From positions 53,320,001 to 53,384,000 of the forward strand of contig NC_091478.1 of NCBI RefSeq assembly GCF_036971445.1: a stretch of 64,000 bases of DNA. Direction: 5' to 3'. The translations under genes were made by a program, and so were the position numbers. How positions within the stretch are numbered: the first letter of the stretch is position 1; each line of letters starts with the position of its first letter. Shown one piece after another: positions 1-60,136 of this stretch. The DNA is from Narcine bancroftii. Taxonomy: Eukaryota. Below the pieces are notes generated by a model. It saw only the letters and a program-made list of their open reading frames with translations. It searched no databases and had not been told where the DNA came from.

Positions 1-347
1 CTCTGCTGTATATGACGGGATGAATGTTTCCACACTATTTATTGCACTGTTTGTTTACATTTCTCTCTGTTGTATATAGTGAGGTGAATGATTCCAAAGT
101 GTATATTGCACTGCTTGTTGACATTTCTCTCTGTTGTATATGGTGGGGTGAATAGTTCCACGCTGTTTCTTGCACTGTTTGTTGCATTTCTCTCTGTGGT
201 ATATGGTAGGGGTGAAGCATTCCACACTATTTGTTGACATTTCTATCTGTTGTATATGGTGGGGTGAATGTTTCCATGTTGTTTATTACACTGTTGGCTG
301 ACATTTCTCTCCATTGTATATGGTGGGGTGAATAGTTCCACGCTGTT

Positions 348-1310
348 TTCAGAGCCAGCTCTTCAGCACTTGACGTCCTGCTTTGCGGAAACTGCCAAAA
401 TGTTTGGCCTGGAAGTCAGCCTGAAGAAAATTGAGGTCCTCCATCAGCCAGCTCCCCACCATGACTACCAGCCCCCACCACATCTCCATCGGGCACACAA
501 AACACAAACGGTCAACCAGTTTACTATCTCGGCTACCCCATTTCATCGGATGCAAGGATCGACAACGAGATAGACAACAGACTCGCCAAGGCAAATAGCG
601 CCTTTGGAAGACTACACAAAAAGTCTGGAAAAACAACCAACTGAAAAACCTCACAAAGATTAGCGTATACAGAGCCGTTGTCATACCCACACTCCTGTTT
701 GGCTCCGAATCACGTGTCCTCTAACGGCATCACCTACGGCTCCTAGAACGCTTCCACCAGCGTTGTCTCCGCTCCATCCTCAACATTCATTGGAGCGACT
801 TCATCCCTAACATCGAAGTACTCGAGATGGCAGAGGCCGACAGCATCGAATCCATGCTGCTGAAGATCCAACTGCGCTGGGTAGGTCACGTCTCCAGAAT
901 GGAGGACGATCGCCTTCCCAAGATCGTGTTATATGGCGAGCCCTCCACTGGCCACTGTGACAGAGTTGCACCAAAGAAGAGGTACAAGGACTGCCTAAAG
1001 AAATCTCTTGGTGCCTGCCACATTGACCACTGCCAGTGGGCTGATATCGCCTCAAATCGTGCATCTTGGCACCTCACAGTTCGGCGGGCAGCAACCTCCT
1101 TTGAAGAAGACCACAGAGCCCACCTCACTGACAAAAGACAAAGGAGGAAAACCCAACACACAACCCCAACCAACCAATTTTCCCTTGCAACCACTGCAAC
1201 CGTGTCTTTCTTTCCTCATCGGACTTGTCAGCCACAAACGAGCCTGCATCTGACGTGGACATTACCCCTCCATAAATCTTCGTCCGCGAAGCCAAGCCAA
1301 AGAAGAAAAA
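348..1310 (+). mobile_element. 5'-truncated RTE-clade LINE inside satellite A
   Basis: Near-identical to about 27310-28270 of the long RTE. Frameshifted RT C-terminus (QLRWVGHVSRMEDDRLPKIVLYGE); tail gccaagccaaagaagaaaaa. Confidence 0.93.
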
Positions 1311-2564
1311 ATATGGTGGAGTCAATTTTTCCATGCTGTTTATTGCATTGTATGTAGACATTTCTCTGTTGTATATGGTGGTATGAATGTTTCCAAGCTG
1401 TTTATTGCCCTGTTTGTTGACATTTCTTTCTGTTGTATATGGTGGCATAAATGTTTGCTCACTGTTTACTCCAGATTGTTGACATATCTCTCTGTTGTGA
1501 ATGAGGTGAATGCTTCCACACTCTTTATTGCACTTTTTTTGATATTTCTCTCTGTTGTATAACGTGGAATGAATGTTTCCACGCTCTTTATTGCACTGTT
1601 TTTTTTAATTTCTCTCTACTGCATAAGGTGGGATGAACATTTTCAAGCTGTTTATTGCACTGTTTGTTGCATTTCTTTCTGTTATATATGGTGGGGTGAA
1701 TGTTTCCATGACATTTCTTTCTGTTGTATATGGTGGGGTTAATAATTCCATGCTGTTTGTAGACATTTCTCTCCGTTGTTTGTGGTGGGATGAATGTTTA
1801 TGCCACTTTTTGTTGACGTTTCTCTCTGTTGTATATGGTGGGATGAATGTTTATTGCACTTTTTGTTGACATTTAACTCTGTTGAATATGGTGGGATGAA
1901 TGTTTCCACGCTGTTTATTCCATGGTTTGTTGACATTTCTTTCTGTTGTATACGGTGCTATAAATATTTCCATGGTGTTTATTCCACGGTTTGTTGACAT
2001 TTCTCTCTGTTGTAGATGGTAGGGTTAATGTTTCCACGCTGTTTATTGCACTGTTTGTTGACTTTTCTTTCTGTTGAATATGGTAGGATGAATGTTTCCA
2101 TGCTGTTCATAGACATTTCTCTCTGTTGTTTATGGTGGGAAAAATGTTTATTGCACTCTTTGTTGACATTTCCCTCTGTTGTATAAAGTGGGATGAATGT
2201 TTCCACATTGTTTATGGCATTGTTTGTTGACATTTTTCTCTGTTGTATATGGTGGGATGAATGTTTCCACACACTTTATTGCACTGTTTGTTGACATTAA
2301 CTCTTTTGAATATGTTGGGATGAATGTTTCCACGCTGTTTATTGCACTGTTTGTTGACATTTCTCTCTGTTGTGTAAAGTGGGATGAACGTTTCCACGCT
2401 CTTTATTGCACTGTTTGTTGACATTTATTTCTCTTGTATATGGTGTGGTGAATGTTTCCACGCTGTTTGTGGACATTTCTCCCTGTTGTTTAAGGTGGGA
2501 TGAATTTTCCATGCTCTTTACTGCACTGTTTGTTTACATTTGTCTCTGTTCTATATGGTGGGAT

Positions 2565-2656
2565 GATCAGCCATGATCTCGTTGAATGGCGGAGCAGGCT
2601 CGAAGTGTCGAATGACCTACTCCTGCTCCTATCTTCTATGTTTCTATGTTTCTATG
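2565..2656 (+). mobile_element. CR1-type LINE 3' terminal fragment
   Basis: gatcagccatgatc...gaatggcggagcaggctcg...cctactcctgctcctat followed by a (tttctatg)n tail. It interrupts a satellite monomer at ggtgggatg|aatgtttcc. Confidence 0.8.
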
Positions 2657-5600
2657 AATGTTTCCACACACTTTATTACACTGTTTGTTGACATTTCTCT
2701 CTTTTGTATATCGTGGGGTGAATGTTTCCATGCTGCTTGTAGACATTTCTCTCTGTTGTTTAAGGTGGGATAAATGTTTCCATGCTCTTTATTGCACTGT
2801 TTGTTGACATTTCTCTCTGTTGTATATGGTGGGATGAATTTTCCATGCTCTTTACTGCAGTTTGTTTACATTTGTCTCTGTTTTATAAGGTGGGGTGAAT
2901 GTTTCCATGCTGTTTGTAGACATTTCTCTCTGTTGTTTATAGTAGGAAAACTGTTTATTGCACTGTTTGTTGACATTTCTCTCTGTTGTATATGCTGTGG
3001 TGAATGTTTCCACGCTGTTTGTTGACATTTCTCTCTGTTGTGTATGGTAGGATGAATGTTTCCACGCTCATATTGCACTGTTTTTTTAAATTTCTTTCTA
3101 CTCTAGCATGTGGGATGAACATTTTCAAGCTGTTTATTGCACTGTTTGTTGCATTTCTTTCTCTTATATATGGTGGTATAAATGATTCCATGCTGTTTAT
3201 TGGACTGTTTGTTGAGATGTCTCTCTGTTTTATATGGTGGGGTGAATGTTTCCATGCCGTATATTGCACTGTTTGTTGACATTTCTTTGTGTTGTATATG
3301 GTGGGGTGAATGATTCCATGCTGTTTGTAGACATTTCTCTCTGTTGTTTATGGTGGGATGAACGTTTATTGCACTGTTTGTTGAAATTTCTTTCTGTTCT
3401 ATATGGTGGGGTAAATGTTTCCATGCAGTTCATTGCACTGTTTGTTGACATTTCTCTCTGTTGTTTATGGTGGGATGAATGTTTATTGCACATTTTGTTG
3501 ACATTTGTCTCTGTTGTATAAGATAGGATGAATGTTTCCACGTTGTTTATGGCACTGTTGGTTGACATTACTCTCTGTTGTAATGGTGGGGTGAATGTTT
3601 CCATGCTGTTTGTAGACATTTCTCTCTGTTGTTTATGGTGGGAAAAATCTTTTTTGCACTCTTTGTTGACATTACTCTCTGTTTTAGATGGTGGGGTTAA
3701 TGTTTCCATGCTGTTTATTGCACTGTTTGTTGACATTTCTTTCTGTTGTATATGGTGGTATAAATGTTTCCATGGTGTTTATTCCACGGTTTGTTGACAT
3801 TTCTCTCTGTTGTAGATGGTGCGGTGAATGTTTCCACGCTGTTTGTAGACATTTCCCTGTTGTATATGGTGGGATGAATGTTTCCACGCTCTTTATTGCA
3901 CTTATTGTTGACATTACTCTCTGTTGTATAATGTGGGATGAATGTTTCCATGCTCTTTATTGCACTGTTTGTTGACATTTCTCTCTGTTGTTTATGGTGG
4001 GATGAATGTTTATTGCACATTTTGTTGACATTTCTCTCTGTTGTATAAGATGGGATGAATGTTTCCACGTTGTTTATGACACTGTTGGTTGACATTACTC
4101 TCTGTTGTAATGGTGGGGTGAATGTTTCCATGCTGTTTGTAGACATTTCTCTCTGTTGTTTATGGTGGGAAAAATCTTTATTGCACTCTTTGTTGACATT
4201 ACTCTCTGTTTTAGATGATGGGGTTAATGTTTCCACGCTGTTTATTGCACTGTTTGTTGACATTTCTTTCTGTTGTAGATGATGCGGTGAATGTTTCCAC
4301 GCTGTTTGTAGTCATTTCCCTGTTGTATATGGTGGGATGAATGTTTCCATGCTCTTTATTGCACTGTTTGTTGACATTACTCTCTGTTGTTTATGGTGGG
4401 ATGAATGTTTATTGCACTATTTGTTGACATTTCTCTCTTTTGTATATCGTGGGATGAATGTTTCCATGCTGTTTGTAGACATTTCTCTCTGTTGTTTAAG
4501 GTGTGATAAATGTTTCCATGCTGTTTATTACACTGTTGAAATTTCTCTCTGTTGTATAAGGTGGGACGAATGTTTCCATGCTGTTTATTGAACTATTTAT
4601 TGACATTTCTCTCTGTTGTAATGGTTGGATCAATGTTTATTGCACTTTTTGTTGACATTTCTCTCTGTTGTATACGGTGAGATTAATGTTTCCACGTTGT
4701 TTATGGCACTGTTGGTTGACATTTCTTTCTGTTGTATATGGTGGTATAAATGTTTCCATAGTGTTTATTCCACGGTTTGTTGACATTTCTCTCTGTTGTA
4801 GATGGTGGGGTTAATGTTTCCACGCTGTTTATTGCACTGTTTGTTGACTTTTCTTTCTGTTGTATAAGGTGGTATAAATGTTTCCATGGTGTTTATTCCA
4901 CGGTTTGTTGACATTTCTCTCTGTTGTAGATGGTGGGGTTAATGTTTCCACGCTGTTTATTGCACTGTTTGTTGACTTTTCTTTCTGTTGTATATGGTGG
5001 TATAAATGTTTCCATGGTGTTTATTCCACGGTTTGTTGACATTTCTCTCTGTTGTAGATGGTGGGGTTAATGTTTCCACGCTGTTTATTGCACTGTTTGT
5101 TGACTTTTCTTTCTGTTGTATATGGTGGTATAAATGTTTCCATGGTGTTTATTCCACGGTTTGTTGACATTTCTCTCTGTTGAATATGGTAGGATGAATG
5201 TTTCCACACACTTTATTGCTGTCTTTGTTGACATTTAACTCTGTTGAATATGGTGGGATGAATCTTTCCACGCTGTTAATTAACATTTCTCTCCGTTGTG
5301 TATGGATGGATTAATGTTTCCACGCTCGTTATTGCACTGTTTTTTAAAATTTCTCTCTACTGTATAAGGTGGGATGAATGTTTTCAAGCTGTTTATTGCA
5401 CTGTTTGTTGCATTTCTTTCTGTTATATATGATGGTATAAATGATTCCATGTTGTTTATTGGACTGTTTGTTGAGGTGTCTCTCTGTTTTATATGGTGTG
5501 GTGAATGTTTCCATGCCGTTTTTTGCACTGTTTGTTGACATTTCTTTGTGTTGTATATGGTGGGGTGAATGATTCCATGCTGTTTATAGACATTTCTCTC

Positions 5601-6424
5601 TGTTGTTTATGGTGGGATGAATGTTTATTGCACTGTTTGTTGACATTTCTCTTTGTTCAATATGGTGGGCTGAATGTTTCCATGCCGTTTATTGCACTGT
5701 TTGTAGACACTTCTCTCTGTTGTTTATGGTGGGATGAATGTTTATTGCACTCTTTGTTGACATTTCTCTCTTTTGTATATCATGGGGTGAATGTTTCCAC
5801 GCTCTTTGTAGACATTTCTCTCTGTTGTTTATGGTGGGATGAATGTTTTTTTTAAATTTATCTCTACTGTAGAAAGTGGGATGAATGTTTTCAAGCTGTT
5901 TTTTGCTCTGTTTGTTGCATTTCTTTCTGTTATATATGATGGTATAAATTATTCCATGCTGTTTGACATTTCTCTCTTTTGTATATCGTGGCGTGAATGT
6001 TTCCAGACTGTTTGTAGACATTTTTCTCTGTTGTTTATGGTGGGATGGATGTTTATTGCACTGTTGTTGACATTTCTCTCTGCTGTTTAAAGTGGCATAA
6101 ATGTTTCCATGCTGTTTATTACACTGTTTGTTGACATTTCTTTTTGTTGTTTATGGTGGGATTAATGTTTCCACACTCTTTATTGCACTGTTTGTTGAGA
6201 TTTCTCTCTTTTGTATATGGTGGGGTGAATATTTCCATGCTGTTTGTAGACATTTCTCTCTGTTGTTTATGGTGGGATGAATGTTTCCACGCTATTTATT
6301 GCACTGTTTGTTGACATTTCTCTCTTTTGTATATGGTGGGGTGAATATTTCCATGCTGTTTGTAGACATTTCTCTCTGTTGTTTATGGTGGGTTGAATGT
6401 TTCCACGTTATTTATTGCACTGTT

Positions 6425-6535
6425 TGTTGACATTTCTCTAGTTGTATACTGATAATTAGAAATTCTGCCTGGTCCGGAGGAAAAATAATTTCAGCGTTAT
6501 GCATGAACTTTGACAATAAACCTAATCTTTGATCT
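6425..6535 (+). mobile_element. Rex1/Babar-type LINE 3' terminus contiguous with satellite A
   Basis: ctgataattagaaattctgcctggtccggaggaaaaataat...tgacaataaac matches the Rex1 3' UTRs at 32160-32230 (+) and 6650-6730 (-). Confidence 0.7.
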
Positions 6536-6639
6536 TTTTGTGACTCTATGACTATTCCCTATGACTTCCTCTGACTATATGAGAATAATGTCGGGAACTC
6601 AATACAGCACTTCCAATCTCTTGTCTCAACTAAAGTTTA

Positions 6640-7920
6640 AATCTCTTGGCAGAGTACATACATCACATACAACCCTGAGATTCTTTTTTCTGCTGGCGAG
6701 ACAGAATTTATACTCATCAGTAACTGTAAACTGTACTCAAGAAGAAAGATATGTTTACAAAAGAAAGAAATGTAAACAAACAAACTATGCAAATATAGAA
6801 AATATAAATGTTCAGCTGTAGTAGGCTGAGTGGCCACGTAGCATGGTGGTTCGAACCATCGACCGTGCAGCTGCCTTAGCAGGTGTGCAGCATCACCTCG
6901 GCCGAGGTTCCACATGGCGCTGAGAGCCAGGTTGCGGACCACTGGGAAGTTGGGTGCTCACCTACAAAATGGTGCAGGGCTTCTGTCGTCTTTAAGACAT
7001 GCGCCCTTCAGGTGAGTTGCAGGCATGGGGTGATGTCACTTCTTCTCCCAGGTATCTGGGCCGGAAGGGATTTAAAAGAGCAGGCAAATTTGAAATAAGT
7101 GTCTTTGCTGACCAGACTGTGTCTGGTGTATTGATTTAGTAGCTCTACTGGAGCAGTTGCTATACAGTAATAAATAATGCACAGAAGTAAGAGTCCTTAA
7201 ATGACTCTCTGATTGAGTTTGTCGTTGAGGAGTCTGATGGTGGAGGGATAGCAGCTGCTCTTGAACATGGGGGTGCAAGTCTTGTGGCACCTGGACCTCT
7301 TTCCTGATGGCAGCAGTGAGTACTGTGTGTGTGCTGGGTATTGTGGATCCTTGCTCTCCAATAGCAGCATTTCCCATAAATGTCCTCAATGGTGGGGAGA
7401 GTTTTCCCAACAACTTACTGGGCTGTGTCTAGCTTTTGCAAGGTTTTTTGCTCCGAGGTATCGGTGATCCAATGTCAGGTTGTGATGCACCTGGTCAGCA
7501 CACTTTCTACTATGCATCTGTAGAAGTTTGCTAAGGTATCTGATGATATACCAAACATCTGCAAATTGCTGAGAAAGTAGAGGTGTTGACATGCTTACTT
7601 CAAGATGACAATAGTATGATTGGGCCCTGAAAGATCTTCCAAGAGATAGTGACTTCCAGGAATTTAAATTTGCAGAGCCACTCTGCCTCAGATTCTCCAA
7701 TAATCACTGGTTTGCACACCTGTTTCTTTTCATTCCTTTGTATTGGCGACATTGACTTGTGAGGTGTTGATAGTACACCATTCAGCATGTTGACTCATCA
7801 CCCCTTTTGATACAGCCCACCACAAATTTGTAAATTATGTTATTGTCATACTAAGCTTTTCACAGTCATAGGTGTAAAGTGAGTAGAGCAGGGAACTAAG
7901 TATACAACCGTTCCTACAAA
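6640..7920 (-). mobile_element. degenerate Rex1/Babar LINE fragment (RT C-terminus plus 3' UTR)
   Basis: Shares ...AAIRKEVQVPQD and the 3' UTR (atttaaggactc..., tttgtttacatttctttcttttgtaaacatatc) with the Rex1 copy at 31270-32230. Split by the insertion at 6817-7167. Confidence 0.75.
6817..7167 (+). mobile_element. probable solo LTR inserted in the Rex1 3' UTR
   Basis: TGTA...TACA termini, TATA-like gatttaaaag and gaaataag. It separates two otherwise contiguous parts of the Rex1 3' UTR. No clean TSD. Confidence 0.5.
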
Positions 7921-22745: not shown

Positions 22746-23040
22746 AAATCCTTCACCAAGAAATGAGCAGGTCCAACTGATTTTTGGGTCCAAAACACAC
22801 ACATTGCCTCATTTTATTTGGTATTCCCCTCCCACCTTGTGACACAGAGATCACTGTAGGGGCAGTAAATCCAGCCAGGATCCTCCTCTCTGAATATAGA
22901 GCCTCTAAAACCAGCTGCGATGCCTCACGAGTGAGAAATTCTCACGGAGCTGAGAGAGAGAAAATCACAAATAGAGCAAAGGCTGTCGAACCACCTCCAC
23001 CTCTTCCCACACAAGGAGTCATGTTAAGGGATGCTCTTAC

Positions 23041-23276
23041 TTCTTTGACTGACGAGACACCATGCCAGGTATTTTGAAGATGAAGTATTTGAACTCAAAT
23101 TCCCCCGTGTTCTCAAGAGTGAAGGTACGATTTCTGCGGCCGGCCACCACCACAGTGCCAAAGTTAACCTCCTTGGCAGGTAGTATTTGATAGGTACTGA
23201 AGATAGCGCAGGCGGATATCTTCACTGGAATGCTGGCAATGACCTCTCCTCCTTCACCTAGGCTGGGTTCAATTAC
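23041..23276 (-). CDS. HYDIN: HYDIN internal coding exon (236 bp)
   Basis: Acceptor ttctctgtctgacttcag|GTA, donor AAGAA|gtaaga. Encodes VIEPSLGEGGEVIASIPVKISACAIFSTYQILPAKEVNFGTVVVAGRRNRTFTLENTGEFEFKYFIFKIPGMVSRQSK, like HYDIN IIEPNISEGGEIIASIPIKFSA...INFGAL...FTIENQG. Phase 0 in, 2 out. Confidence 0.92.
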
Positions 23277-23889
23277 CTGAAGTCAGACAGAGAAAATGCC
23301 TTACAGAAGGTCCAACCAAGCATCTTTCATTCTCTTGTTTCATAGGCTACAGAATGCATAAACCCATGAATTACAGGTATGGGGATTCTGTAACATAGAA
23401 GAATGAAACTACCAACACTGTGGCAAGACTGAGATATCTGTAACAAGCAGGCGTTTTCAATAAACATTAAACATGGCTGAACAGATGTGAAGCTCCTCAA
23501 TACAATCCATGGTCTGGGGCTTATGTGGATAGAAACTAAGGCCAAAGGAGATGGAACAACCCACAGTGCTGGAAGAACACAACGGGTCAGCCAGCATCTG
23601 TGGAAGGCAATAGTCAATCAACATCTCAGGCCGTAACACCATTGAAAAAAATTCCAAGTTAAGGGCTCCAGCCTGAAACAGTGACCTCACACGGATGCTC
23701 CCTGTCCCGTTGAGTTCCTACAGGACTCTATTGCTCCAGTTTTCCAGCATCCACACTCTCTCTTATTTACCTCCAAAGTGAATGATCTCATTGCATTGTT
23801 TATTTGGCAGGCTGTTGTTTAAGAATATGTGTGCTCTTGGTCACTATCTCTGTTTGAATCAAGATTCATTGTTACCCAGCTGCCCAACT

Positions 23890-24205: not shown

Positions 24206-24510
24206 CATCTCTCAGCAGGTAAATGGCCTGTTAAGGGAGTTTATTTTAAAATCCTGCAACCACGGTGTCTGCACCCAAGATGGTGGTGCCTATGTACAGG
24301 GTTGCAGACTCTGTGGACTTGTACAGGGCACCAGTGCACACAGTACTGGCCCCACCCTTTACACCCATGGTTTGTGTGCCGTGGCCAAGCAAGCTGGGAC
24401 GTGGCAGCGAGGTCCTTGGGTCGTAGGTTTTATATCGGAGTGGCCTTCTCCAATGCACGTTTCTTACCCAGGCTGGAGGGGTCTGCCTCCCCTCCTAGGT
24501 CGGTCCATAC

Positions 24511-24925
24511 TGCCCGGACCAGGGCCGAGGCCGCCGCTGCTTTCCCTGTGCCCAGACTGGGGCCGCCGCCTCCTACTTTCTGCCCAGACTGGGGCATCCG
24601 CCTGCCTCACTCGACCGAGGCCGGGGCCGCCGCCTCCCCTTTGCTCTTGCCCGGATCGGGGCCACCACCGCCTACCCTCTGCCCGGACCGGGGCCAGGGC
24701 CGCCGCTGCTTTCCCTGTGCCCGGACTGGGGCCACCGCCTCCTACTTTCTGCCCGGACCAGGGCCTCCGCCTGCCTCACTCGACCGAGGTCGGTGCCGCC
24801 GCCTCCCCTTTGCTCTTGCCCGGATCGGGGCCGCCGCCGCCTACCCTCTGCCCGGACCGGGGCCGGGGCCGGGGCCAGCGCTGCTTTCCCTGTGCCTGGA
24901 CTGGGGCCTCCGCCTCCTACTTTCT
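24511..24925 (+). repeat. GC-rich hierarchical tandem repeat in RTE 5' region (about 183-190 bp unit x about 2.3, built from about 32-38 bp gcccggac...gccgcc subunits)
   Basis: The block cgctgctttccctgtgcc...cctcctactttct occurs three times and ctgcctcactcgaccgagg...cctaccctctgcccggaccgggg twice. Confidence 0.9.
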
Positions 24926-24957
24926 AAAAGCTCCTTTGCGCAGGCCCGAGGACAGGT

Positions 24958-25033
24958 CCACGTCCTCCCCCTCCACATCCTCCCCCTCCACGTCCTCCCC
25001 CTCCACGTCCTCCCCCTCCACGTCCTCCCCCTC
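24958..25033 (+). repeat. 15-bp tandem repeat (ccacgtcctccccct) x5, encoding (STSSP)5
   Basis: Directly visible, immediately upstream of the EN start KLKLACWNIRT. Confidence 0.95.
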
Positions 25034-31269: not shown

Positions 31270-32230
31270 GATTGGCAAGAACATCTTCTCAATCTCCATC
31301 AGAACCAGAGCCCCACAGGATTAGAATAGCCCACTGCTCTACTTGCTTTATACATGACTGTGTAGCTCGATATGACGACACCATTTACAAATTTGCTAAC
31401 GATACCACCATAGTGGGCAGTATAAAGGGGGGGGGGGGTTATAAATCAGCAGAGAGAGATTAAAAACTTGGCTGAATTGTGGACAAACAATAACCTGTCT
31501 CTCAATGGTACCAAGACCAATAGACTTCAGGAAAGGAAAACCATAGGCGTACAATCGAGTGATCATTGGGGAACCAGAGTTGGAGATGATGAGTATCTTT
31601 ACATTCCTGGGGTTCATTATCTTAAAGGACCCAACTTATTAATGCCATTGTGAAGAAAGCACATCACCATCTGTAATTCCTCAGGAGTTTGCAGAGGTTC
31701 AGAAGGTCACGGGAAACGTTAGCAAACCTCTACAGATTAGTGGAAAGTGTGCTGACCAGCTACATCACAGCCTGGTATGGCGCACCAGTTCCTCTGAGTA
31801 TAAAGCCCTTCAAACAGTCCACTATATCACAAGCAAAACTCTCCACCACTGAGAAAATCTACAAGGAACATTGCTGTCGGAGAGCAGCAGCAATCATCAA
31901 GGATCCACAGCACCCAGGTCGTGTTCTGTTCATGCTGCTGCCATCAAGAAAGGAGGTACAGGTGCCACAGGACACATAAGGAATAGTTGCTACCCTTCAA
32001 TTATCAGACTCCGGAACAATATACAAATTAATTTAGAGACTCATTTAAGGGCCTGTACCTGCTCATGATTTATTCCTGAATATTTATATTTTCTGTATTA
32101 GCACAGTTTGTTTACATTTCTCTCTTTTGTAAACATATCTTTCTACTTGAGTATACAGTTGCTGATAAGTAGATATTCTGCCTTCTGTTTAAAATTCTTT
32201 CTTAGACATTCTACCTGGCTGTAGGAAAAA
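31270..32230 (+). mobile_element. degenerate Rex1/Babar LINE (RT C-terminal half plus 3' UTR)
   Basis: HDCVARY..IYKFANDTTIVG, LANLYRLVESVLTSYITAWYG, IIKDPQHPGRVLFMLLPS and RNSCYPSIIRL are Rex1-clade motifs. Confidence 0.85.
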
Positions 32231-32261
32231 AGAAATGTAAACAAACTGTGCTAATACAGAA

Positions 32262-40394: not shown

Positions 40395-40965
40395 TTGTTT
40401 CAGGGCAGAGTTGGCACTGGGGATTTGATGTGTTTCAGAAGAGAATGGGCTTGGTGATCAAGTGTGTTTCAGCAGAGAGTGGGCACAGGGATCTGGTGTG
40501 TTTCATGGAGAATGGGCATCAGGGATCTGGTGTGTTTCATGGAGAGTGGGCATCAGGGATCTGAAATGTTTCAGGGGAGAGTGGGCATCAGGGATCTGAT
40601 ATGTTTCAGGGGAGAGTGGGCACAGGGATCTGGTGTGTTTCATGGAGAGTGGGCATCAGGGATCTGGTGTGTTTCATGGAGAGTGGGCACAGGGATCTGG
40701 TGTATTTCATGGAGAGTGGGCATCAGGGATCTGGTGTGTTTCATGGAGAGTGAGCATCAGGGATCTGATATGTTTCAGGGGAGAGTGGGCAGAGATCTGA
40801 TGTGTTTCATGGAGAGTGGGCATCAGGGATCTGATATGTTTCAGGGGAGACTGGACAGAGGAGATCTGATGTGTTCCCAAAGAGTGTGGGCACTGAAGAT
40901 CTGAAGTGTTTCAGGGGAGAGTATGCACTGGAGATCTTGTGTGCTTCAGGGGAATATGGACAATG
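40395..40965. repeat. 33-34-bp minisatellite (tggagagtgggcatcagggatctggtgtgtttca), related to satellite B
   Basis: About 16 tandem units, most homogeneous at 40475-40850. Confidence 0.92.
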
Positions 40966-41229
40966 AAGATCTGGCGACTGACACATAAGTGTGGGACCTG
41001 GGGATCTAGTCTCTATCAAGGAATGTGGTACATGGGTTCTGGTGTTTTCCAGATCAGTTTGGGCAGCGGGGGTCTGTTGTATTTCAGGGCAGAGTGGGCC
41101 TTGGGAAACTGATGTGAAGTGTAAGAGAAGAGAAGGCACTGGGTATTTCAGCAGAAAATGAGTTTTGGGATCTGATATTTCAGGAGTGTGGGAACCAGGG
41201 ACTGGTGTACTTCACGGGATTTTGCGCAG

Positions 41230-44200
41230 TTGGAATCTGCTGTGTTTCAGGGGAAAGTGGCTGCCAGGGTCCTCGTGTGTTTCAGGTCAAAGTGGACACT
41301 GGGCACCTGGTGTGTTTCAGGTCAGTGTGGACAGTGGGTACCTGGTGCGTTTCAGGTCAGTGTGGACACTGGGCATATTCTGTGTTTCTGGTCAGTGTGG
41401 ACACTGGACACCTGGTGTGTTTCAGGTTAGTGTCAGCACTGGGCATCTGTTGTGTTTCAGGTCAGCATGGACACTGGGAACCTGAACCTATTGTGTTTCA
41501 GGTTAGTGTGGACACTGGACACCTTGGTATCTTTCAGGTCAGCGTTAGCACTGGGCACCTGGTGTTTCAGGTCAGCGTGGACACTGGGAACCTGTTATGT
41601 TTCAGCTCATTGTGGATACTGGACACCTGGTGTGTTTCAGGTCAGCGTGGCCACTGGGAATCTGAACTTGTTGTGTTTCAGGCCAGTGTGGACACTGGAC
41701 ACCTGGTGTGTTTCAGGTCAGCGTCAGCACTGGGCACCTGATGTGTTTCAGGTCAGTGTGGACACTGGGAACCTGTTGTGTTTCAGGTCAGTGTGGGCAC
41801 TGGGCACCTGGTGTGTTTCAGGTCAGTGTGGGCATGAAACAGTATTTGGCAGAAAGTCAGAATTTAGAGAAAGAAATAGCATTGTAAGAGAGGAAATTTC
41901 AGAAGAGTTCAACTGAAGATAATAAGGTACAATTATCTAAATTGAAAATATGTTATAACACTTTGCAAACTTATAAGTATGAGAAAGTGATTCAAAGATT
42001 GAAACAACATTATTATGAGTTAAGTGAGAGAGCCCATAGGTTCTACCTTGGCAGTTGAAGACTGAACAAATATCTAGGACGATCAATGCAGTCAGGAGAA
42101 ACTCAATGATAACATATAAACCCCAGGAAATTAATGATGAATTTTGTACATTTTTACACATCTGGGGGAACTCAGGATATTGAACAGATTTAATCTTTTT
42201 AGGCTAATTTAAATTTACCTTTGTTAAATGAAAAAGATATTAAGGATATTAAGTCCATTTACTGATTTAGAGCTTAAGAAGGCATTGCAATCTATGCCTA
42301 GTGGGAAATCTCCAGGAGAAGATGGATTTACAATGGAGTTCTATAAAGAATTTTATGACTTGTTACTTCCTGTATATACAGAAGTACTTAAGCAAGCGAC
42401 AGAAATGGGTTTATTTCCAGAGTCATTCTCAAGAGTGTTGATAACACTTATTCTAAAGAAGGACAGATATCCATTAAAAGTGACTTCATATAGACTGATA
42501 TCTTTATTGAATATGGATTATAAGAATGTAGCAAAGGTATTAGCGAACAGATTGGCTAATTTTCTACTACAATTAGTACATGTGGATCAAGCAAGTTTTA
42601 TAAAGAATAGATATTCAGCTTATAATATTACTAATTTGATTAAAATAATTAATGCTTCAAGACGCCAACTCAACTGCTAGATGCGGAAAAAGCTTTTGAC
42701 TGTGTTGAGTGGAATTTTTTATTTAAAGTGTTAGAAAGATTTAAATTTGAACCACTAAATAGTTGGATGGGTGAAAGCATTATATACCAATCCTTCTGCC
42801 CGGGTGGTGACGAATGGACAGATTTCACCTGCATTTAATTTGTCTAGATCAACCAGACAGGGCTGTCCATTATCACCAGCCTTATTTGTATTAGTTATAG
42901 AACCATTGGCTCAAATGATAAGACAAGATATTAATATTAAGGGAATTAAAATAGGTGAACAAGCGTATAAACTTAATTGTGTTGATATATTTATCTTATC
43001 CTAGAAATTCTTAAGAGCCATTACAAAATTTGCTGAATCAATATGGAGTAATTTCGGTTATAAGGTTAACTGGGATAAAAGTGAAATATCGATATCAGAT
43101 GAAGACTATTCAGATTGTAAACAGCTTACAAAGTTTAGATGGTCTAATAAAATTAAATATTTTGGGATAATAGTAAATAGAGAATATCAAAATCTGTATG
43201 GTTTAAATTAAATAAGATAAAATTTGTTTTAAATAGATGGAAAGATTTGCCTTTAATATGATTGGAAGAGTAAATTGTATCAAAATTAATATATATCCTC
43301 ATGTTCATTATCTTTTTCAGTCTATTCTGTGTTCTATACCAAGGAAATTTTTTAAGGAACTAAATAAAGTAATTTGTTTGTTTTTATGAAAAAGTAAGTT
43401 GTTGAGTTTCCCTGCAGATGTTGATATGGAGGTATGATTTAGGTGGACTTTAATTACCACATTTTCAGAATTATTATGAAGCAGCACAACTAAAATTTAT
43501 CAATAGGATGTTTGATATTGATCAACCCTCAGTATGGGCAAAGGTGGAGTTGGATTAGATATCTGAGAATAAAGTACATCATTTTATATATAAATGGAAT
43601 TCTTCTCTTTTGCAAAAGTATAAACTGCCTGTATTGAGCATTTAATGGATATCTGGTATAAATTGGACCAGATTATAGGAACTAAAGGTAAAATTTCAGC
43701 TAAGAGACCATTATATCAGAACAAGATCATTCCTTTTTCTCTCAATAACCCCTATTTGAAAGATTGGGAAATGAAAGGTGTGAAATTGGTGGAGGATTAT
43801 TTTGAACCAGGTATGTTTCTTTCTTTTATTAGACTTGGAGAGAAATTTGGGATATCACTGAATTCTTTATTTGTTTATTATCAAGTTTGAGATATATTGT
43901 TAGAAAATTTTGGAAGAGATTTGGTGTTACCTGGTCAAACTAAAATTGAGATATTAATTGCTGATAAGGGAATGAAAGGGTTTATTTCCAAAATGTATGC
44001 GTTATTACAGGAAAAGATGATTAAGGTTGATGTATATAAAATGAAAGACAAATGGGAGAAGGATTTGTCCATTATATTATCTCAGGAGGAATGGTCGAAT
44101 ATATGAGTTGATAGCATTACAAAATTAATTAACGTGAGATATAGTTTGTTAATTATAATTTTTTACACCAGTTATATTTAACTCCAGAGACATTAAAAAA

Positions 44201-47200
44201 ATATGGTTTTAGTTCTTCGGATTTGTGCTTTTGATGTGGAGTACCGAGAGGAACTTTCTTACATTCAATATGGGCATGTACAAAAGTTAAACCTTTTTGG
44301 GCAAAAATTACTAAGTTTTTGGAGGATTTATTTAAGATGGATTTGCACCTTGATCTATTAGTGTGTTTAATGGGTTATACTTATACATTAACGACAGGTT
44401 TGTGATTGGATAAATCACAAATTGCATTTATACGATTAGAACTGGCAGTAGCCAGAAAATGTATAGCTGTTACATGGAAGAATGAAGTTGAATTCAATAT
44501 ACAATGATGGCACAATGAATTTCAATCGTGTCTTTATTTAGAGAAGAGAACTTAAAATTTGCAAAATAATTATCCTTATTTTGTTAAAATGAGGACTTTA
44601 TATTTGAAATATATGCGATTCGACATGAAGTAAATGATTTTTTGTGCGATGGCACACCAAGCAGTAAATACCCAATATAATTTTTTATTTCTCTGAAACG
44701 AGGGGTGAGGGGAGGAGGGGAAGAGTGGACACTGGGCACCTGCTGTTTTTAAGGTCAGTGGTCACTGGGCACCTGGTGTGTTCCAGGTCACCGTTCGCAC
44801 TGGGCACTTGCTGTGTTTCAGGTCAGCATGGGGACCGTGAGCACCTGGTGTGTTTCAAGTCAGTGTGGACAGTGGGATCCTGGTGTGTTTCAGGTCAGTG
44901 GGGAACTGAGCACCTGCTGTGTTTCACATCAGCGTGGACACCAGGCACCTGGTGTGTTTTAGGTCACCGTTCGCACTGCGAAATCTGGTGTGTTTCAGGT
45001 CAGTGTGGATACTGGGCACTTGGTATGTTTCAGGTCAGTGTGGAGAGTGGGTATCTGTCGTGTTTCAGGTCAGCGTTCGCGCTGGGGATCTGGTGGGTTT
45101 CAGTTCAGTGTGGACCGTGGGTACCTGGTGTGTTTTAGGTGAATGTGGACAGTAGCCACCTGGTGTGTTTCAGCTCAGTGTGGACACTGGACACCTGCTA
45201 TATTTCAGGTCAATGTGGATACTGGACACCTGTTTTGCTACAAGTCAACGTGGACACTGGGCACCTGGTTTGTTTCAGTTCAGCGTCGGCACTGGGAACC
45301 TGATGTGTTTCAGATCAGCGTGGACACTGGGAACCTGTTGTGTTTCAGGTCAGTTTGGATACTGGGCCCTTGGTGTGTTTCAGATCATTGTGGACAGGGG
45401 TTACCTGGTGCGTTTCAGGTCAGCGTTCGCACTGGGTACCTGGTGATATTCAGCTCAGTATGGATACTGGGAACCTGACATGTTTCAGGTCAGTTTGGAT
45501 ACTGGGTACCTGCTGTGTTTCAGGTCAGTTTTCATTCTGGGTACCTTTTGTCTTTCAGGTCATCGTGGACAGTGGCCACCTGGTATGTTTCTGGTCAGTG
45601 TGGTCACTGTGCACCTGGTGTTTTTCAGGTCAGCTTGGACACTGGACAACTAGTGTGTTTCAGGTCGCACTGGGTACCTGGTGATTTTCACGTCAGTATG
45701 GATACGGGGCACCTTCTGTGTTTATGGTCAGAGTGGACACTGGGCTTCTGGTGTGTTTCAGGTTAGCATGAGCACTGGGCACATGCTGTGTTTAAGGTCA
45801 GAGTGGACACTGTGCACCTGGTTTGTATTAATTCATTGTGGACACTGGGCACCTGGTGTGTTTCAGGCAAGACTTGGCAATGGGGAACTGGTGTGCTTCA
45901 GGTTAGCATGAACACTGGGCACCTGGGGTGTTTCAGGTCAGCAAGGACACTTGGCAGCTGGTGTGTTTCACGTCAGAGTGGACACTGGGCACCTTGTGTG
46001 TTTCAGGTCAGATTGGACAGTGGGCACCTGGTGTGTTTCAGGTCAGCATGGACACTGGACTCCTGGTGTGTTTTTGGTCAGTGTAGAAACTGGGCACCTG
46101 GTGTGTTTCAAGTCAGTGTGGACAGTGGGATTCTGGTGTGTTTCAGGTCAGCGGTCGCACTGGATACCTGCTATGTTTCAAGTCAACGTGGACACTGGGA
46201 ACCTGATGTGTTTCAGGTCAGCGTGGACTGTGGACAACTAGTGTGTTTCAAATCAGCGGTCGCATTTGCAATCTGCTTTGTTTCAGGTCAATGTGGACAC
46301 TGGGAACCTGGTGTGTTTCAGGTCAGCGTGGACTGTGGACAACTAGTGTGTTTCAGGTCAGCATTCGCACTGGATACCTGGTGATTTTCAGGTCAGTATT
46401 GATACTGGGCACCTGGTTTGTTTCACGTCAGCATAAACAGTGAGCACCTGGTGTGTTTCAAGTCAGTGTGGACAGGGGGAATCTGGTGTGTTTCAGGTCA
46501 GCGGTCGCACTAGGTACCAGCTGTGTTTCACTACAGTGTGGACACTGGGCACATTTTGCTTTTCAGGTCAGCGTGGGCACTGGGCATCTGCTTTGTTTCA
46601 GTTCATTGTTAATACTGGGAACCTGATGTGTTTCAGGTCAGCGTGGACTGTGGACATTCAGCTCAGTGTTCGCACTGGGTAGCTGGTGATTTTCAGGTCA
46701 GTATGGATACTGGTCATCTGGTGTGTTTCAAGTAAGCATGAACACTGCACACCTGGTGTGTTTCAGGTCAGCAAGGACACTCGGCACCTGGTGTGTATGA
46801 CATCAGCGTAGTCACTGGGTACCTGGTGATATTCAGCTCAGTATGGATACTGGGAACCTGACATGTTTCAGGTCAGTTTGGATACTGGGTACCTGCTGTG
46901 TTTCAGGTCAGTTTTCATTCTGGGTACCTTTTGTCTTTCAGGTCATCGTGGACAATGGCCACCTGGTATGTTTCTGGTCAGTGTGGGCACTGTGCACCTG
47001 GTGTTTTTCAGGTCAGCTTGGACACTGGACAACTAGTGTGTTTCAGGTCGCACTGGGTACCTTGTGATTTTCACGTCAGTATGGATACGGGGCACCTTCT
47101 GTGTTTATGGTCAGAGTGGACACTGAGCTTCTGGTGTGTTTCAGGTTAGCATGAGCACTGGGCACATGCTGTGTTGAAGGTCAGAGTGGACACTGTGCAC

Positions 47201-50200
47201 CTGGTTTGTATCAATTCATTGTGAACACTGGGCACCTGGTGTGTTTCAGGCAAGACTTGGCAATGGGGAACTGGTGTACTTCAGGTTAGCATGAACACTG
47301 GGCACCTGGGGTGTTTCAGGTCAGCAAGGACACTTGGCAGCTGGTGTGTTTCACGTCAGAGTGGACACTGGGCACCTTGTGTGTTTCAGGTCAGAGTGGA
47401 CAAGGGGGCACCTGGTGTGTTTCAGGTCAGCATGGACCCTGGACTCCTGGTGTGTTTTTGGTCAGTGTAGAAACTGGGCACCTGGTGTGTTTCAAGTCAG
47501 TGTGGACAGGGGGATTCTGGTGTGTTTCAGGTCAGAGGTCGCACTGGATACCTGCTATGTTTCAAGTCAACGTGCACACTGGGAACCTGATGTGTTTCAG
47601 GTCAGCGTGGACTGTGGACAACTAGTGTGTTTCAAATCAGCGGTCGCATTTGCCATCTGCTTTGTTTCAGGTCAGCGTGGACTGTGGACAACTAGTGTGT
47701 TTCAGGTCAGCATTCGCACTGGATACCTGGTGATTTTCAGGTCAGTATTGATACTGGGCACCTGGTGTGTTTCACGTCAGCATGAACAGTGAGCACCTGG
47801 TGTGTTTCAAGTCAGTGTGGACAGGGGAAATCTGGTGTGTTTCAGGTCAGCGGTCGCACTAGGTACCAGCTGTGTTTCACATCAGTGTGGACACTAGGCA
47901 CATTTTGCTTTTCAGGTCAGCGTGGGCACTGGGCAACTGCTTTGTTTCAGTTCATTGTTAACACTGGGAACCTGATGTGTTTCAGGTCAGCGTGGACTGT
48001 GGACAACTCGTGTGTTTCAGGTCAGCATTCGCACTGGATACCTGGTGATGTTCAGGTCAGTATTGATACTGGGCACCTGGTGTGTTTCACGTCAGCATGA
48101 ACAGTGAGCACCTGGTGTGTTTCAAGTCAGAGTGGACAGGGGGGATCTGGTGTGTTTCAGGTCAGCGGTCGCACTAGGTACCAGCTGTGTTTCACATCAG
48201 TGTGGACACTGGGCACATTTTGCTTTTCAGGTCAGCGTGGGCACTGGGCAACTGCTTTGTTTCAGTTTATTGTTAACACTGGGAACCTGATGTGTTTCAG
48301 GTCACCGTGGACTGTGGACAACTAGTGTGTTTCAGCTCGCTCAGTGTTCGCACTGGGTAGCTGGTGATTTTCAGGTCAGTATGGATACTGGTCATCTGGT
48401 GTGTTTCAAGTAAGCATGAACACTGCACACCTGGTGTGTTTCAGGTCAGCAAGGACACTCGGCACCTGGTGTGTATGACATCAGCGTAGTCACTGGGTAC
48501 CGTGTGTGTTTCAGGTCAGTGTGTACTCTGGGCCCCTGGTGTGTTTTAGATCAGTGTAGACCCTGGGCATCTGAGGTGTTACATGATAGCATGTACAGTG
48601 GGCACTCGGTGTGTTTCAGGTCAGCGTGGACACTGGGAACCTGTTGTGTTTCAGGTCAGTGTGGACACTGGGCACCTTGTGTGTTTCAGATCAGCATGGA
48701 CAATGGACTTCTGGTGTGTTTCATGTCAGTGTGGAGAGTGGGTACCTGGTGTGTTTCAGTGAAGCGTTTGCACTGGGAACCTGGTGAGTTTCAGGTCAGT
48801 TTGCATATTGAGCCCCTGGTGTGTTTCAGATCAGTGTGGATCCTGGGTTTCTGAGGTGTTACAGGTCAGCGTGGACACTGGACAACTAGTGTGTTTGAGG
48901 TCAGCGTTCGCACTGGGTGCCTGGTGATTTTCACATCAGTTTGGATACTGGGAACCTGGTGTGTTTCAGGTCAGCAAGGACACTCTGCATCTGGTGTGTT
49001 TCACGTCAGCGTAGGCACTGTGTACCTTGTGTGTTTCAGGTCTTAGTGGAAATTGGGCCTCTGGTGTAATTCAGATCAGTGTGGACTCTGGGCACCTGGT
49101 GTGTTTCAGGTTAGCATGAACACAGGGCACCTGGTGTGTTTCAGATCATTGTGGAGAGTGGGTAACTGGCATGTTTCAGGTCAGCGTTTGTGTTGGGTAC
49201 CTGGTGTGTTTCAGTTCAGTGTGGACCGTGGGTACCTGGTGTGTTTCAGGTCAGCGTAGATTCTGGTCACCTGGTGTGTTTAATGTCAGAGTGGACAGGG
49301 GGAATCTGGTGTGTTTCAGATCATAGTGGACATTGGGCCCCTGGTGTGATTCAGATCAGTGTGGACCCTGGGCAACTGAGATGTTACTGGTCAGTGTGTC
49401 CACTGAGCACCTGCTGTGTTTCAGGTCTGCGTGGACACTGGGTACCTGGTGATATTCAGGTCAGTATGGACACTGGGCACCTGGTGTGTTTCAGGTTAGC
49501 ATGAACACTGGTCACCTGGTGTGTTTTAGGTCAGCAAGGACACTCGGCATCTAGTGTGTTTCACGTCAGCGTAGGCACTGAGTATCTTGTGTGTTTAAGC
49601 TCAGAATGGATACTGAGCACCTGGTGTGTTACAGGTCAGTGCAGACACTGGACACCTGGTGTATGTTTGGTTAGTGTAGACACTGGGCACCTGGTGTGTT
49701 TCAGGTCAGCATGAACCGTGAGCACCTGGTGTGTTTCAGCTCAGCGTTAGCACTGGGTACCTGGTGTGTTTCATGTCATTGTGGACACTGGGCTCCTCAG
49801 CTCAGCGTTAGCACTGGGTACCTGGTGTGTTTCATGTCATTGTGGACACTGGGCTCCTGGTGTGTTTCAGATCAGTGTAGATCCTGGGCATCTGAGCTGT
49901 TACAGGTCATCGTAGAGACTGGACATCTGGTGTGTTTTTGGTCAGGGTAGACACTGGACACCCGGTGTGTTTCAGGTCAGCGTGGACTGTGGACAACTAG
50001 TGTGTTTCAGGTCAACGTTCGCAATGGGTACCTGGTGATTTTCAGCTCAGTATGCATACTGGGCACCTGGTGTGTTTCAGGTCAGTTTGGACACTGGGTA
50101 CCTGCTGTGTTTCAGATCAGTTTTCCCACTGGGTACCTGGTATGTTTCAGAGCAGCGTGGACAGTGGACACCTGGTGTGTTTCAGATCAGTGTGGGCACT

Positions 50201-53200
50201 GGGCACCTGGTGTGTTTCAGGTTAGCATGAACACAGGGCACCTGGTGTGTTTCAGGTCATTGTGGAGAGTGGGTAACTGGCATGTTTCAGGTCAGCGTTT
50301 GTGTTGGGTACCTGGTGTGTTTCAGTTCAGTGTGGACCGTGGGTACCTGGTGTGTTTCAGGTCAGCGTAGATACTGGTCACCTGGTGTGTTTAATGTCAG
50401 AGTGGACAGTGAGCACGTGATGTTTTTTAGGTGAGCATGGACAGTGCCCACTAGGTGAGTTTTTGGTCAGTGTAGACACTGGGCACCTGTTGTGTTTCAG
50501 GTCAGCATGGACAGTGAGCACCTGGTGTATTTGAAGTCAGTGTGGACAGGGGGAATCTGGTGTGTTTCAGATCATAGTGGACATTGGGCCCCTGGTGTGA
50601 TTCAGATCAGTGTGGACCCTGGGCAACTGAGATGTTACTGGTCAGTGTGTCCACTGAGCACCTGCTGTGTTTCAGGTCTGCGTGGACACTGGGTACCTGG
50701 TGATTTTCAGGTCAGTATGGACACCTGGCAACTGGTGTGTTTCAGGTTAGCATGAACACTGGTCAACTGGTGTGTTTTAGGTCAGCAAGGACACTCGGCA
50801 TCTAGTGTGTTTCTCGTCAGCGTAGGCACTGAGTACCTCGTGTGTTTAAGCTCAGAATGGATACTGAGCACCTGGTGTGTTACAGGTCAGTGTGGACACT
50901 GGACACCTGGTGTATGTTTGGTCAGTGTAGACACTGGGCACACGGTGTGTTTCAGGTCAACGTTCGCAATGGGTACCTGGTGATTTTCAGCTCAGTATGC
51001 ATACTGGGCACCTTGGTGTGTTTCAGGTCAGTTTGGACACTGGGTACCTGCTGTGTTTCAGATCAGTTTTCCCACTGGGTACCTGGTATGTTTCAGAGCA
51101 GCGTGGACAGTGGACACCTGGTGTGTTTCAGATCAGTGTGGGCACTGGGCACCTGGTGTGTTTCAGGTTAGCATGAACACAGGGCACCTGGTGTGTTTCA
51201 GGTCATTGTGGAGAGTGGGTAACTGGCATGTTTCAGGTCAGCGTTTGTGTTGGGTACCTGGTGTGTTTCAGTTCAGTGTGGACCGTGGGTACCTGGTGTG
51301 TTTCAGGTCAGCGTAGATACTGGTCACCTGGTGTGTTAATGTCAGAGTGGACAGTGAGCACGTGATGTTTTTTAGGTGAGCATGGACAGTGCCCACTAGG
51401 TGAGTTTTTGTTCAGTGTAGACACTGGGCACCTGTGGACAGGGGGAATCTGGAGTGTTTCAGGAAAGCGGTCGCACTGGGTTCCTGCTGTGTTTCAGCTC
51501 AGCGTGGACTGTGGCCACCTGGTGCTTTCCAGGTCTGCGTGGGCACTGGGCATCTGCTTTGTTTCGGGTCAATATTGTCACTGGGAACTTGTTGTGTTTC
51601 AGGTCAGCATGTGCACTGGGCATATTCTTTGTTTCAGGTCAATATGGTCACTGGGAACCTGGTGTGTTTCAGGTCAGCGTGGATACTGGTCACCTGGTGT
51701 TTTTCAGGTCAGCATGGACAGTGAGCAACTGGTGTGTTTCAAGTCAATGCGGACAGGGGGAATCTGGTGTGTTTCAGGTCAGCGGTCGCACTGGGTACCA
51801 GCTGTGTTTCAGGTCAGTGTGGACACAGGGCACATTGTGCTTTTCAGGGCAGCGTGGGCACTGGGCATCTGCTTAGTTTCAGGTCTTTGTTAACATTGGG
51901 AACGTGATGTGTTTCAGGTCAATATTAACACTGGGAACCTGGTGTATTTCAGGTCAGTGTGGACTGTGGACAACTATTGTGTTTCAGCTCTGCGTTCGCA
52001 CTGGGTACCTGGTGATTTTCAGGTCTGTATGGATACTGGCGATCTGGTGTGTTTCAGGTCAGCATGAACATTGCGCATCTGGTGTGTTTCAGGTAAGTGT
52101 AGACACTGGGCTCCTGGTGTGTCTCAGGTTAGCATGAGCACTGGGTACCAGGTGTGATTCATGTCAGCAAAGACACTTTGTACCTTGTGTGTTTCAGGTC
52201 TTAGTGAACATTGGGCACCTGGTGTGATTCAGATCAATGTGGACACTGGGCACCTGAGGTGTTACTAATCAGCTTGTACTCTGGGCACCTGCTGTGTTTC
52301 AGGTCAGAGTGGACACTGGGAACCTGCTTTGTTTAAGTTCATTGTGGACCGTGGGTACATGGTGTTTTTCAGGTTAGCATGGATACTGGTCACCTGGTGT
52401 TTAACGTCAGAGTGAACAGTGAGCACCTGGTGTTTTTTTAGGGTGAGCATGGACAGTGGCCACCAGGTGTATTTTTGGTCAGTGTAGACACTGTGCACCT
52501 GGTGTGTTTCAGGTCAGCACTGACAGTGAGCACCTGGTGTGTTTCAAGTTAGTGTGGACAGGGGGAATCTGGTGTGTTTAAGTTCATAGTGGACATTGGG
52601 CCTCTGGTGTGATTCAGATCAGTGTGGATCCTGGGGACCTGATATGTTACAGGTCAGCGTGGACACTGAGCACCTGGCGTGTTTTTGGTCAGCGTGAACA
52701 TTGGCTACCTTGTGTGTTTCAGGTCAGTGTGGACAGAGGGCACCTGGTGTGTTTCAGGTCAGTGTGTACTCTGGGCTCCTGGTGTGTTTCAGATCAGTGT
52801 GGACCCTGGGCACCTGAGGTTTTGCAGGTTAGCGTGACTTGGTCAGATGGTGTGTTTTTGTTCAGTGTAGACACTGGGCACCTGTGGACAGGGGGAATCT
52901 GGAATGTTTCAGGAAAGCGGTCGCACTGGGTTCCTGCTGTGTTTCAGCTCAGCGTGGACTGTGGCCACCTGGTGCTTTCCAGGTCTGCGTGGGCACTGGG
53001 CATCTGCTTTGTTTCGGGTCAATATGGTCACTGGGAACCTGTTGTGTTTCAGGTCAGCATGTGCACTGGGCATATTCTTTGTTTCAGGTCAATATGGTCA
53101 CTGGGAACCTGGTGTGTTTCAGGTCAGCGTGGATACTGGTCACCTGGTGTTTTTCAGGTCAGCATGGACAGTGAGCAACTGGTGTGTTTCAAGTCAATGC

Positions 53201-58680: not shown

Positions 58681-59055
58681 TTTTGTGTTTGAGTGGATTT
58701 GGACAGTTTGGATGTTTTTCATGTGAGTTTGGGCAAATTTACAGCTGTATTCAAGTTTAATAAAAGCAAATTAAAAAATGCAGGATTCTCGCAGCAAGTT
58801 GTGGAGCTTCTGCAGAGAGAGATACAAACTCAATGTGTCCGATCCTTGCCTTTGAGCTGAAATGTGAATATTTTTCTCTCTCTCTCTCTACAGGATTGAC
58901 TGACCCACTGAGTGTTTACTGCACTTTGGAATTTGAATTCAGATTTCTAGCATCTGAGGATTTCTGATTTAATACACTAATCATTTGATAACCATCTCTA
59001 TTGATCTATTATTCATTATCAAACAGTATCTTGAGAAGAAATGGAAAAAAAGTAC

Positions 59056-59155: not shown

Positions 59156-60136
59156 CTTCAACACAGAGTTACGAATCGGGTGTTATTGTCTTTTTAAGTG
59201 CAACATCACAGGAACAAGAACAAAACATTGCAGACTTCTAAACTCAACAACTGCAGGAGTATATTGGTGTTTGGCTGAATATGCTGTTCTTGGCGAGTGG
59301 ATGAGGGAATGCTGGTGGAGAGATCAGAATGAGGGAGTCAGGCACTGAGTGATCAAGTATCTGGGTGATCTCAACAGGTTTGGATTGCTTTTAAGAATGG
59401 GGTGATTCGGTTGTGACTGGTGGCTGGTTGTAGTGATACATTGGTGGAGTGAAGGAATGACAATACTTTTCCACTCAGAATGGTGCGTGGTTCTGAGGGA
59501 AACTTCCAGAGGGTGGTGTCCTCATGCTTTTGCTGCCCTTAACTGGTGGGGGTGGTGGGTTTGGAAGGTTCTGTACAAGGAGTCTCAGTGAATTGCTGCA
59601 CTGCATCTAGTAGACAGTACAAACTGCTGCTCCAGTGTTTGGGTGGTGTAGTGAGTGTAGGGATATGTCACATGGTAACTGTGTCCTGGATGGTGTTGAG
59701 TTCCCAAGTGTTGTTGAATCTGCCCCCACTCTACTTTCTATAATATAATACTCTATAATATTATGTCATAAATTGAATATTTCTTATTTTTTTGGTATTC
59801 ATTATCTCATTTTGATTTAATTTAATATGAACTATTGAAGTTGTTTGTTTTCAGAGAGTAGCTGTTCATTTGCAGCGTGCACAAATATCGGTGCATTGGA
59901 CCATTGTACAATGTGTATGATAATAAACTTATTTCCGTTACCATTATCTATAATACTACGAGTTTTCATTTCAAATCATTCTTGCCCAGATAATTCAATG
60001 AAACATATGTCGTTGAGGAGTGAAAGAAAACATTTGGAAAGTGAACTTTTCTTTGTATGAACTGCAACAGTTCCCACTCGAACCATTTTAAAGCAGATAA
60101 CTGACCTAACACCTGTATCACTGAGAGGAAACTGTC

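Follow-up and report, generated by a model that had tools for sequence, protein, structure and literature searches.

The window analyzed here, 64,000 nucleotides of the Narcine bancroftii genome, opens with a long tandem array whose unit resembles the 3′ untranslated region (UTR) of an abundant LINE. Did this array grow where it now stands, from one copy of that LINE, and how was its unit made? The reading that we favor, with a probability of about 0.7, is that it is a single-locus minisatellite of Rex1-like LINE UTR sequence that ends in the tail of that element, grew in place from one old copy, and probably has no function.

TRF found a period of 64 at 1-348 and 1311-6448; the array starts about 80 bp to the left of the window, at about 53319920 on the contig (G000:C22), and its right end is at 6448. 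The array and its core motif lie where a preliminary description, made from the letters of the window, had placed them, although 1-6535 is not repeat throughout: two LINE inserts interrupt the array, and the repeat itself amounts to ~5.5 kb. Units were counted by cutting at a core anchor, which gave 88 anchors and 87 intervals; since a few intervals cover two units or an insertion, we put the array at ~90 units. The main-block intervals measured 64 bp in 37 cases of 87, 52 bp in 16 and 53 bp in 13. Divergence of the 36 units of 64 bp is 10.4% from their consensus and 17% between units, and block duplications of 200-520 bp (91-96% identity) occur at offsets of 116, 128, 463, 527 and 2259 bp. 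No G-quadruplex motif was found in the main block. Two retroelement insertions are later than the array. One is a fragment that we take to be RTE-type, at which no clear target-site duplication was seen; the other presumably comes from a CR1-like family (Table 1).

The array is intronic, at 53.3 Mb on a 108.8-Mb contig of a 3.3-Gb genome. It is flanked on either side by HYDIN exons of the minus strand and is therefore inside the gene, which bears out the placement in a HYDIN intron given in the preliminary description; no exon for mouse residues 3249-3365 was found between the two flanking exons. We see no sign of a role for the array or of an effect on HYDIN, and it is probably functionless. 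Elsewhere in the window, TRF placed the other long arrays at 40-64 kb. A 14-kb array of ~400 units of 35 bp occupies 44725-58690, with related 34-35-bp arrays at 40396-41831; an array with a 25-bp unit lies at 60132-60464, a long degenerate TG/GA-rich array at 61896-64000, and GC-rich 32/169-bp and 15-bp arrays at 24510-25033. Four other tandem arrays of the window, including the 35-bp array, had no match among the fetched loci.

Table 1. Positions of the array, its insertions and neighboring features, in window coordinates unless a locus is named.
Feature	Position	Strand	Remarks
Left block of minisatellite	1..348, begins ~80 bp outside window	+	abuts L1-type RT fragment there
5′-truncated RTE-type LINE fragment inserted into array	349..1310	+	93-95% identical to other window copies
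Main block of minisatellite	1311..6448	+	units of 64, 52 and 53 bp and rarer lengths
Short 3′ end of another high-copy LINE, inserted into one unit	~2566..2652	+	
Last unit, collinear with LINE 3′ UTR	6392..6448	+	profile match 6392-6534
Attached LINE tail	6447..6537	+	78/91 aligned bases equal family consensus; ~30-bp spacer and 12-bp piece missing
Interrupted opposite-strand copy of parent LINE family	6631..7339; UTR 6631-6816 (core ~6754-6795), ORF end 7161-7339	-	
Second family copy, ORF end and 3′ UTR	31911..32183 (core 32096-32133)	+	
HYDIN exon	23037..23279	-	matches mouse residues 3177-3248, E 5e-16
Later HYDIN exon	L031:2041-2271, ~7.7 kb left of window	-	matches mouse residues 3366-3440, E 2e-18

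First, the array core is 3′ UTR sequence of a high-copy LINE. Aligned to the UTR consensus, the unit consensus scored 47; dinucleotide shuffles scored 22.2 ± 3.4 (maximum 39), and none of 2000 reached 47. A 26-base core pattern, with one mismatch allowed, matched the genome at 60 sites, of which 30 belong to the array and 30 do not, and its reversed control had no match. The LINE tail then follows the core in all 30 outside matches, and the LINE ORF end lies upstream on the same strand in 16 of them (four further matches are on the opposite strand and are left out of this count). Three pairs among the 30 outside copies look duplicated, so about 27 are independent. With the last unit and its tail as query, the 38 non-array matches, all fetched, fell in 37 loci that have in common a conserved tail after the T-rich core, with the LINE ORF end present in many. 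Outside the array, a query of array sequence alone returned an intact UTR in which 38 bases in a row are 95% identical to the unit. The derivation from a Rex1-like 3′ UTR put forward in the preliminary description is thus upheld, as are the core-like stretches that it had pointed out at 32096-32133 (+) and ~6752-6795 (-). The two copies to which these belong are ordinary members of a family of ~2 × 10^5 candidates, and neither is the parent.

A possible objection is that the likeness comes from T-rich low complexity, with a LINE tail inserted beside an unrelated array. T makes up 45% of the array, and copies of the family are frequent around it (at least seven profile matches in 94 kb), which would suit such a coincidence, but the shuffles, the silent reversed control and the UTR setting of all 30 outside cores largely refute it, and across the junction the UTR order is kept in register. 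We consider this chance origin extremely improbable; the concern in the preliminary description that T-richness might be the sole likeness falls with it.

Derivation from the UTR being preferred, we can ask which LINE was the parent. A sister sub-family, picked by ORF similarity, scored 35 against the unit, a score reached by 17 of 1500 shuffles; this match is weaker (35 versus 47), and the unit therefore fits the sub-family of the attached tail. The parent LINE encodes RVT_1 followed by PF09004 (both found in L127, L129 and L132), and a first-look search gave ~203,000 candidates in the genome. Among 20 copies selected by ORF, 17 have the tail at the expected place. The best 120 of 828 relatives of its reverse transcriptase (RT) are 46-55% identical, nearly all with RT plus PF09004; the named ones among these 120 come from teleosts and a frog, and none is called Rex1. 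Rex1/Babar is thus a provisional label for the parent LINE. According to a review, Rex1 elements encode their non-LTR RT in a long ORF, after which come a conserved 3′ UTR and a short oligonucleotide tail (PMC6274825), and the architecture of the parent LINE agrees with that description. We found no literature linking Rex1 and DUF1891. An AP endonuclease upstream of the RT gave a weak match, below the cut-off, in a second lineage (lineage 2); none of 20 fetched copies of lineage 1, which has the core, is full-length. The ORF in L152 is of another RT type, with 24% identity to lineage 1. Internal repetition in the parent UTR is confined to an 18-19-bp duplication.

Two observations were made on other copies. 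At 32090-32261 there is a fold-back, in which a 36-base piece of LINE 3′ UTR lies inverted ~100 bp downstream (34/36 identical), directly against an RTE-type insertion at 32262. In five of 20 tail-piece matches (L188, L193, L194, L198 and L205), one and the same place in the LINE tail has an opposite-strand RTE-type element, either exactly there or no more than a few bases away; this may be a selection effect, the loci having been chosen for a T-rich ending, or may reflect a target preference.

Second, the last unit runs straight into the LINE tail. A single profile match spans both (E 3.6e-29), with the fusion at ~6447, in agreement with what had been read from the letters, and it continues to the end of the profile, so that the array has, on one side, a longer terminal copy reaching the LINE end. 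Over the tail, 27 other copies average 87.5% identity to the family consensus and the attached tail is similar, which makes the parent an ordinary old copy. The core-to-tail gap in 30 other copies is 12-52 bases, mostly 30-38, and in the array it is 0; because the other copies have this spacer, the direct fusion indicates a deletion of ~30 bases, and there is a 2-3-base overlap at the deletion point. The preliminary description had the core followed by the same sequence as in Rex1: this is right for the tail, found in 30/30 outside copies, but overlooks the spacer that was lost in the array. Its further point, that a tail of the parental type is still attached at the right end, stands, down to the sub-family. 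A short stretch of degenerate CTATGA-type repeats (6538-6630) separates the attached tail from that of the opposite-strand copy, and its first 100 bases had no match among the fetched loci.

At the left end, where upstream Rex1 UTR or ORF sequence had been looked for, we find instead an L1-type RT fragment (L031:8575-9920; a weak RVT_1 match, with 40 relatives scored) that runs up to the first unit and ends where L1 and the core briefly resemble each other in a T-rich stretch. L1 sequence does not resume within 3 kb to the right of the tail. A Rex1-like 5′ half (L031:7440-8575) lies on the same strand, 1.35 kb left of the array, and was tried as the 5′ half of the parent. It belongs to lineage 2: none of its 20 closest relatives has a tail of the attached type, and we rejected it because these relatives have another UTR at their ends. 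The simplest reading of the left junction is a deletion that removed the 3′ part of the L1 together with the upstream part of the parent. With no parental sequence on the left, the evidence for growth in place is therefore that of the right junction. The preliminary claim that one Rex1 3′ UTR copy was amplified in place is accordingly supported by the UTR unit and by the same-sub-family tail on the right, but finds no parent on the left. The fragments at L031:7440-9920 are nested, the lineage-2 5′ half being cut by the L1-type RT fragment, which itself holds an AC/AT microsatellite. On another contig (G000:C5:101498942-101688224), at least seven similar L1-fragment matches lie within 190 kb, several with identical scores, which suggests a large tandem or segmental repeat.

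The lack of parental sequence on the left and the ~30 bp skipped at the right junction could also be explained if the array was born elsewhere and was copied into a LINE tail by homology-directed repair. Against this, no donor array was found in our genome searches, the units are 17% apart with two old insertions among them, and unit and tail fit one sub-family. We regard such copying as very improbable, and continue with growth in place.

The array appears to be alone in the genome. A pattern for the G-rich half of the unit had no match outside it (10/10 genome matches lie within the array, and the window total is exactly 10), and a 521-base internal query gave 16 BLAST matches, 15 in the array and one of 38 bases in an intact UTR. 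Searches of the genome by pattern and by BLAST found no second array of the unit; these searches score the best candidates only, so that a diverged second array could escape them. The word satellite in the preliminary description, with the family of arrays that it implies, therefore overstates what is one array of ~90 units at single-copy depth, and we call it a local minisatellite. Contigs from two sequencing runs of one sample, probably the assembly's own, contain pieces of the array without differences, at a depth of 7-10 as in the flank. No listed read contig bridges either junction, so both junctions are taken from the assembly. For two further organisms, coverage by their runs is largely limited to the dispersed-repeat parts and misses most of the array; this does not prove that they lack it. 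Among the listed runs, a single sample of this species contains the stretch, and no RNA run does. In run X1, one contig connects 1661-1861 with 5224-5410, and run X4, from the same sample, keeps these apart; the join is probably due to a shared 31-mer, possibly to a shorter allele.

Third, we consider the makeup of the unit, which the preliminary description had treated as one contiguous UTR segment and which probably has two pieces. The contiguous UTR alignment covers 56 of the 64 unit positions and leaves an 8-base G-rich linker. The G-rich half matches a piece of the parent tail, 88 bases downstream, at 18 of 23 positions, ungapped and with exact spacing; no shuffle of 5000 did as well, or 2 of 1500 when 16 windows were allowed. 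The best match to the tail piece is the leftmost unit (19/23). A two-piece model accounts for 51 of the 64 positions, and both of its joins are at words present twice in the UTR. Of the seven non-array matches of the junction pattern, one (L168) is a natural copy in which a similar deletion has brought core and tail together. Within the tail-piece match only 4 of the 8 central bases agree, and the attached tail itself is without 12 bases of the proposed donor piece. The predicted tail-to-head join was seen in none of 20 copies inspected from 1225 pattern matches, and nascent arrays among 150 loci came to only six short 18-19-bp duplications matching the UTR profile. Four other sources had been tried for the G-rich half before the tail piece came up, so the p-value of the tail piece is optimistic. 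We consider it likely that the unit consists of two non-adjacent pieces of one UTR joined at microhomologies, and say likely rather than shown because the tests were made after looking.

A simpler account takes the unit as a single 56-base UTR segment with a G-rich linker, newly added or mutated, of ~8 bases, and the tail-piece match as chance. It needs fewer events, 56 of the 64 positions are indeed collinear with the UTR, and the upstream part fits at p ~0.02. It leaves the eight bases and two diagnostic G's unexplained, however, whereas the tail piece covers them without a gap (18/23, 2/1500 shuffles), and we think it unlikely. The other source of the G-rich half that is nominally significant, besides the parent tail piece, is the lineage-2 3′ UTR, which would make the unit a chimera with its core from lineage 1. 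Under four scorings, 0-1% of shuffles do as well as the gapped lineage-2 match, as do 0.3-1.5% of genomic windows, and the lineage-2 5′ half that stands 1.35 kb leftward, in the same orientation, lacks its 3′ half. When the entire unit is the query, however, the score is reached by 14-31% of shuffles, and without gaps the match falls to just 12/23 (p 0.83). The chimera also calls for a second donor and for two or three gaps, and the segment was picked once the match had been seen. This chimera is rather improbable. Two further candidates were tried and rejected: L1 as the source of the unit (score reached by 78/800 shuffles) and an inverted piece of the parent element as the source of the G-rich half (774/800).

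The two-piece unit remains our preferred model, and a history that would lead from one LINE copy to the present array can be proposed. A ~170-bp part of the UTR, from a TGAAT motif to a look-alike near the 3′ end, would have been duplicated head to tail at this microhomology. An 88-base deletion between two TTGTAT words of the first copy, before or after that duplication, would have shortened the unit to ~62-64 bp. Local duplication, through repeated slippage or unequal exchange, may then have brought the unit to ~90 copies; blocks would have been duplicated on the way, and deletions from one TGTTT word to another inside the unit would have produced the 52- and 53-bp variants. The last copy would have retained its run-out into the tail, with the loss of ~30 bp. 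Finally, a deletion at the left end may have fused the array to the L1 fragment at a short T-rich microhomology, taking with it the upstream part of the parent.

The locus can be read as a record of the birth of a tandem repeat from a retroelement tail, with the parent attached and the junction words, variants and insertions in order. If the two-piece unit is true, new repeat units can be assembled from non-adjacent parts of a parent, and the origin of many repeats would be hidden from simple alignments. Given a repetitive UTR that exists in ~10^5 copies, a local array is to be expected now and then. It is possible, if rather doubtful, that the Rex1-like 3′ UTR is a recurrent nursery of tandem repeats in these cartilaginous-fish genomes, its short words folding it by microhomology into compact rearranged units and independent arrays recurring, in which case this locus would be the earliest stage, before dispersal and with the parent still attached.

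A search of the openly available literature gave nothing on this array or on a Rex1 3′ UTR repeat in sharks or rays. Related systems are known. In the SINE-derived satellites (sSats) of squamates, from 56 genomes, the last of the tandem units is longer than the others and reaches the end of the element (Vassetzky et al. 2023, PMC10702118). The array resembles them in being made from part of an abundant retroelement, in its longer terminal unit, in its incomplete homogenization and in its alternating multimers. It differs in that the parent is a LINE 3′ UTR rather than a SINE, in that it occupies one interstitial intronic locus where sSats have many, often subtelomeric, and in that its unit probably comes from two non-adjacent pieces; parent sequence on both sides is a minor variant among sSats (PMC10702118). 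A review lists a common cetacean satellite from the L1 3′ UTR, the chicken HinfI repeat from CR1 and pea PisTR-A from the Ogre 3′ UTR (PMC9659126). Like ours, these units are homologous to the 3′ end of a retrotransposon, but they are named satellite families, whereas here there is a single 6.5-kb array; PisTR-A moreover grew from repeats already tandem in Ogre, and the parent UTR here has just its 18-19-bp duplication. In the catfish Harttia, the satellite HviSat04-2959 has partial homology to the LINE Rex-Babar (PMC11955569), again Rex-Babar sequence within a fish tandem repeat; it differs in its long composite unit, which includes Tc/Mariner, and the cited part of its description has no attached parent. 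Closest in scale are the TE-derived minisatellites of human and mouse (from Alu, LTR and MaLR, thousands of them in human), which are locus-specific short-unit arrays inside one element copy, although their parent class differs from the LINE parent here (PMC9659126). The array is thus a fresh example of a known process and involves no new mechanism; the two-piece unit is its new detail.
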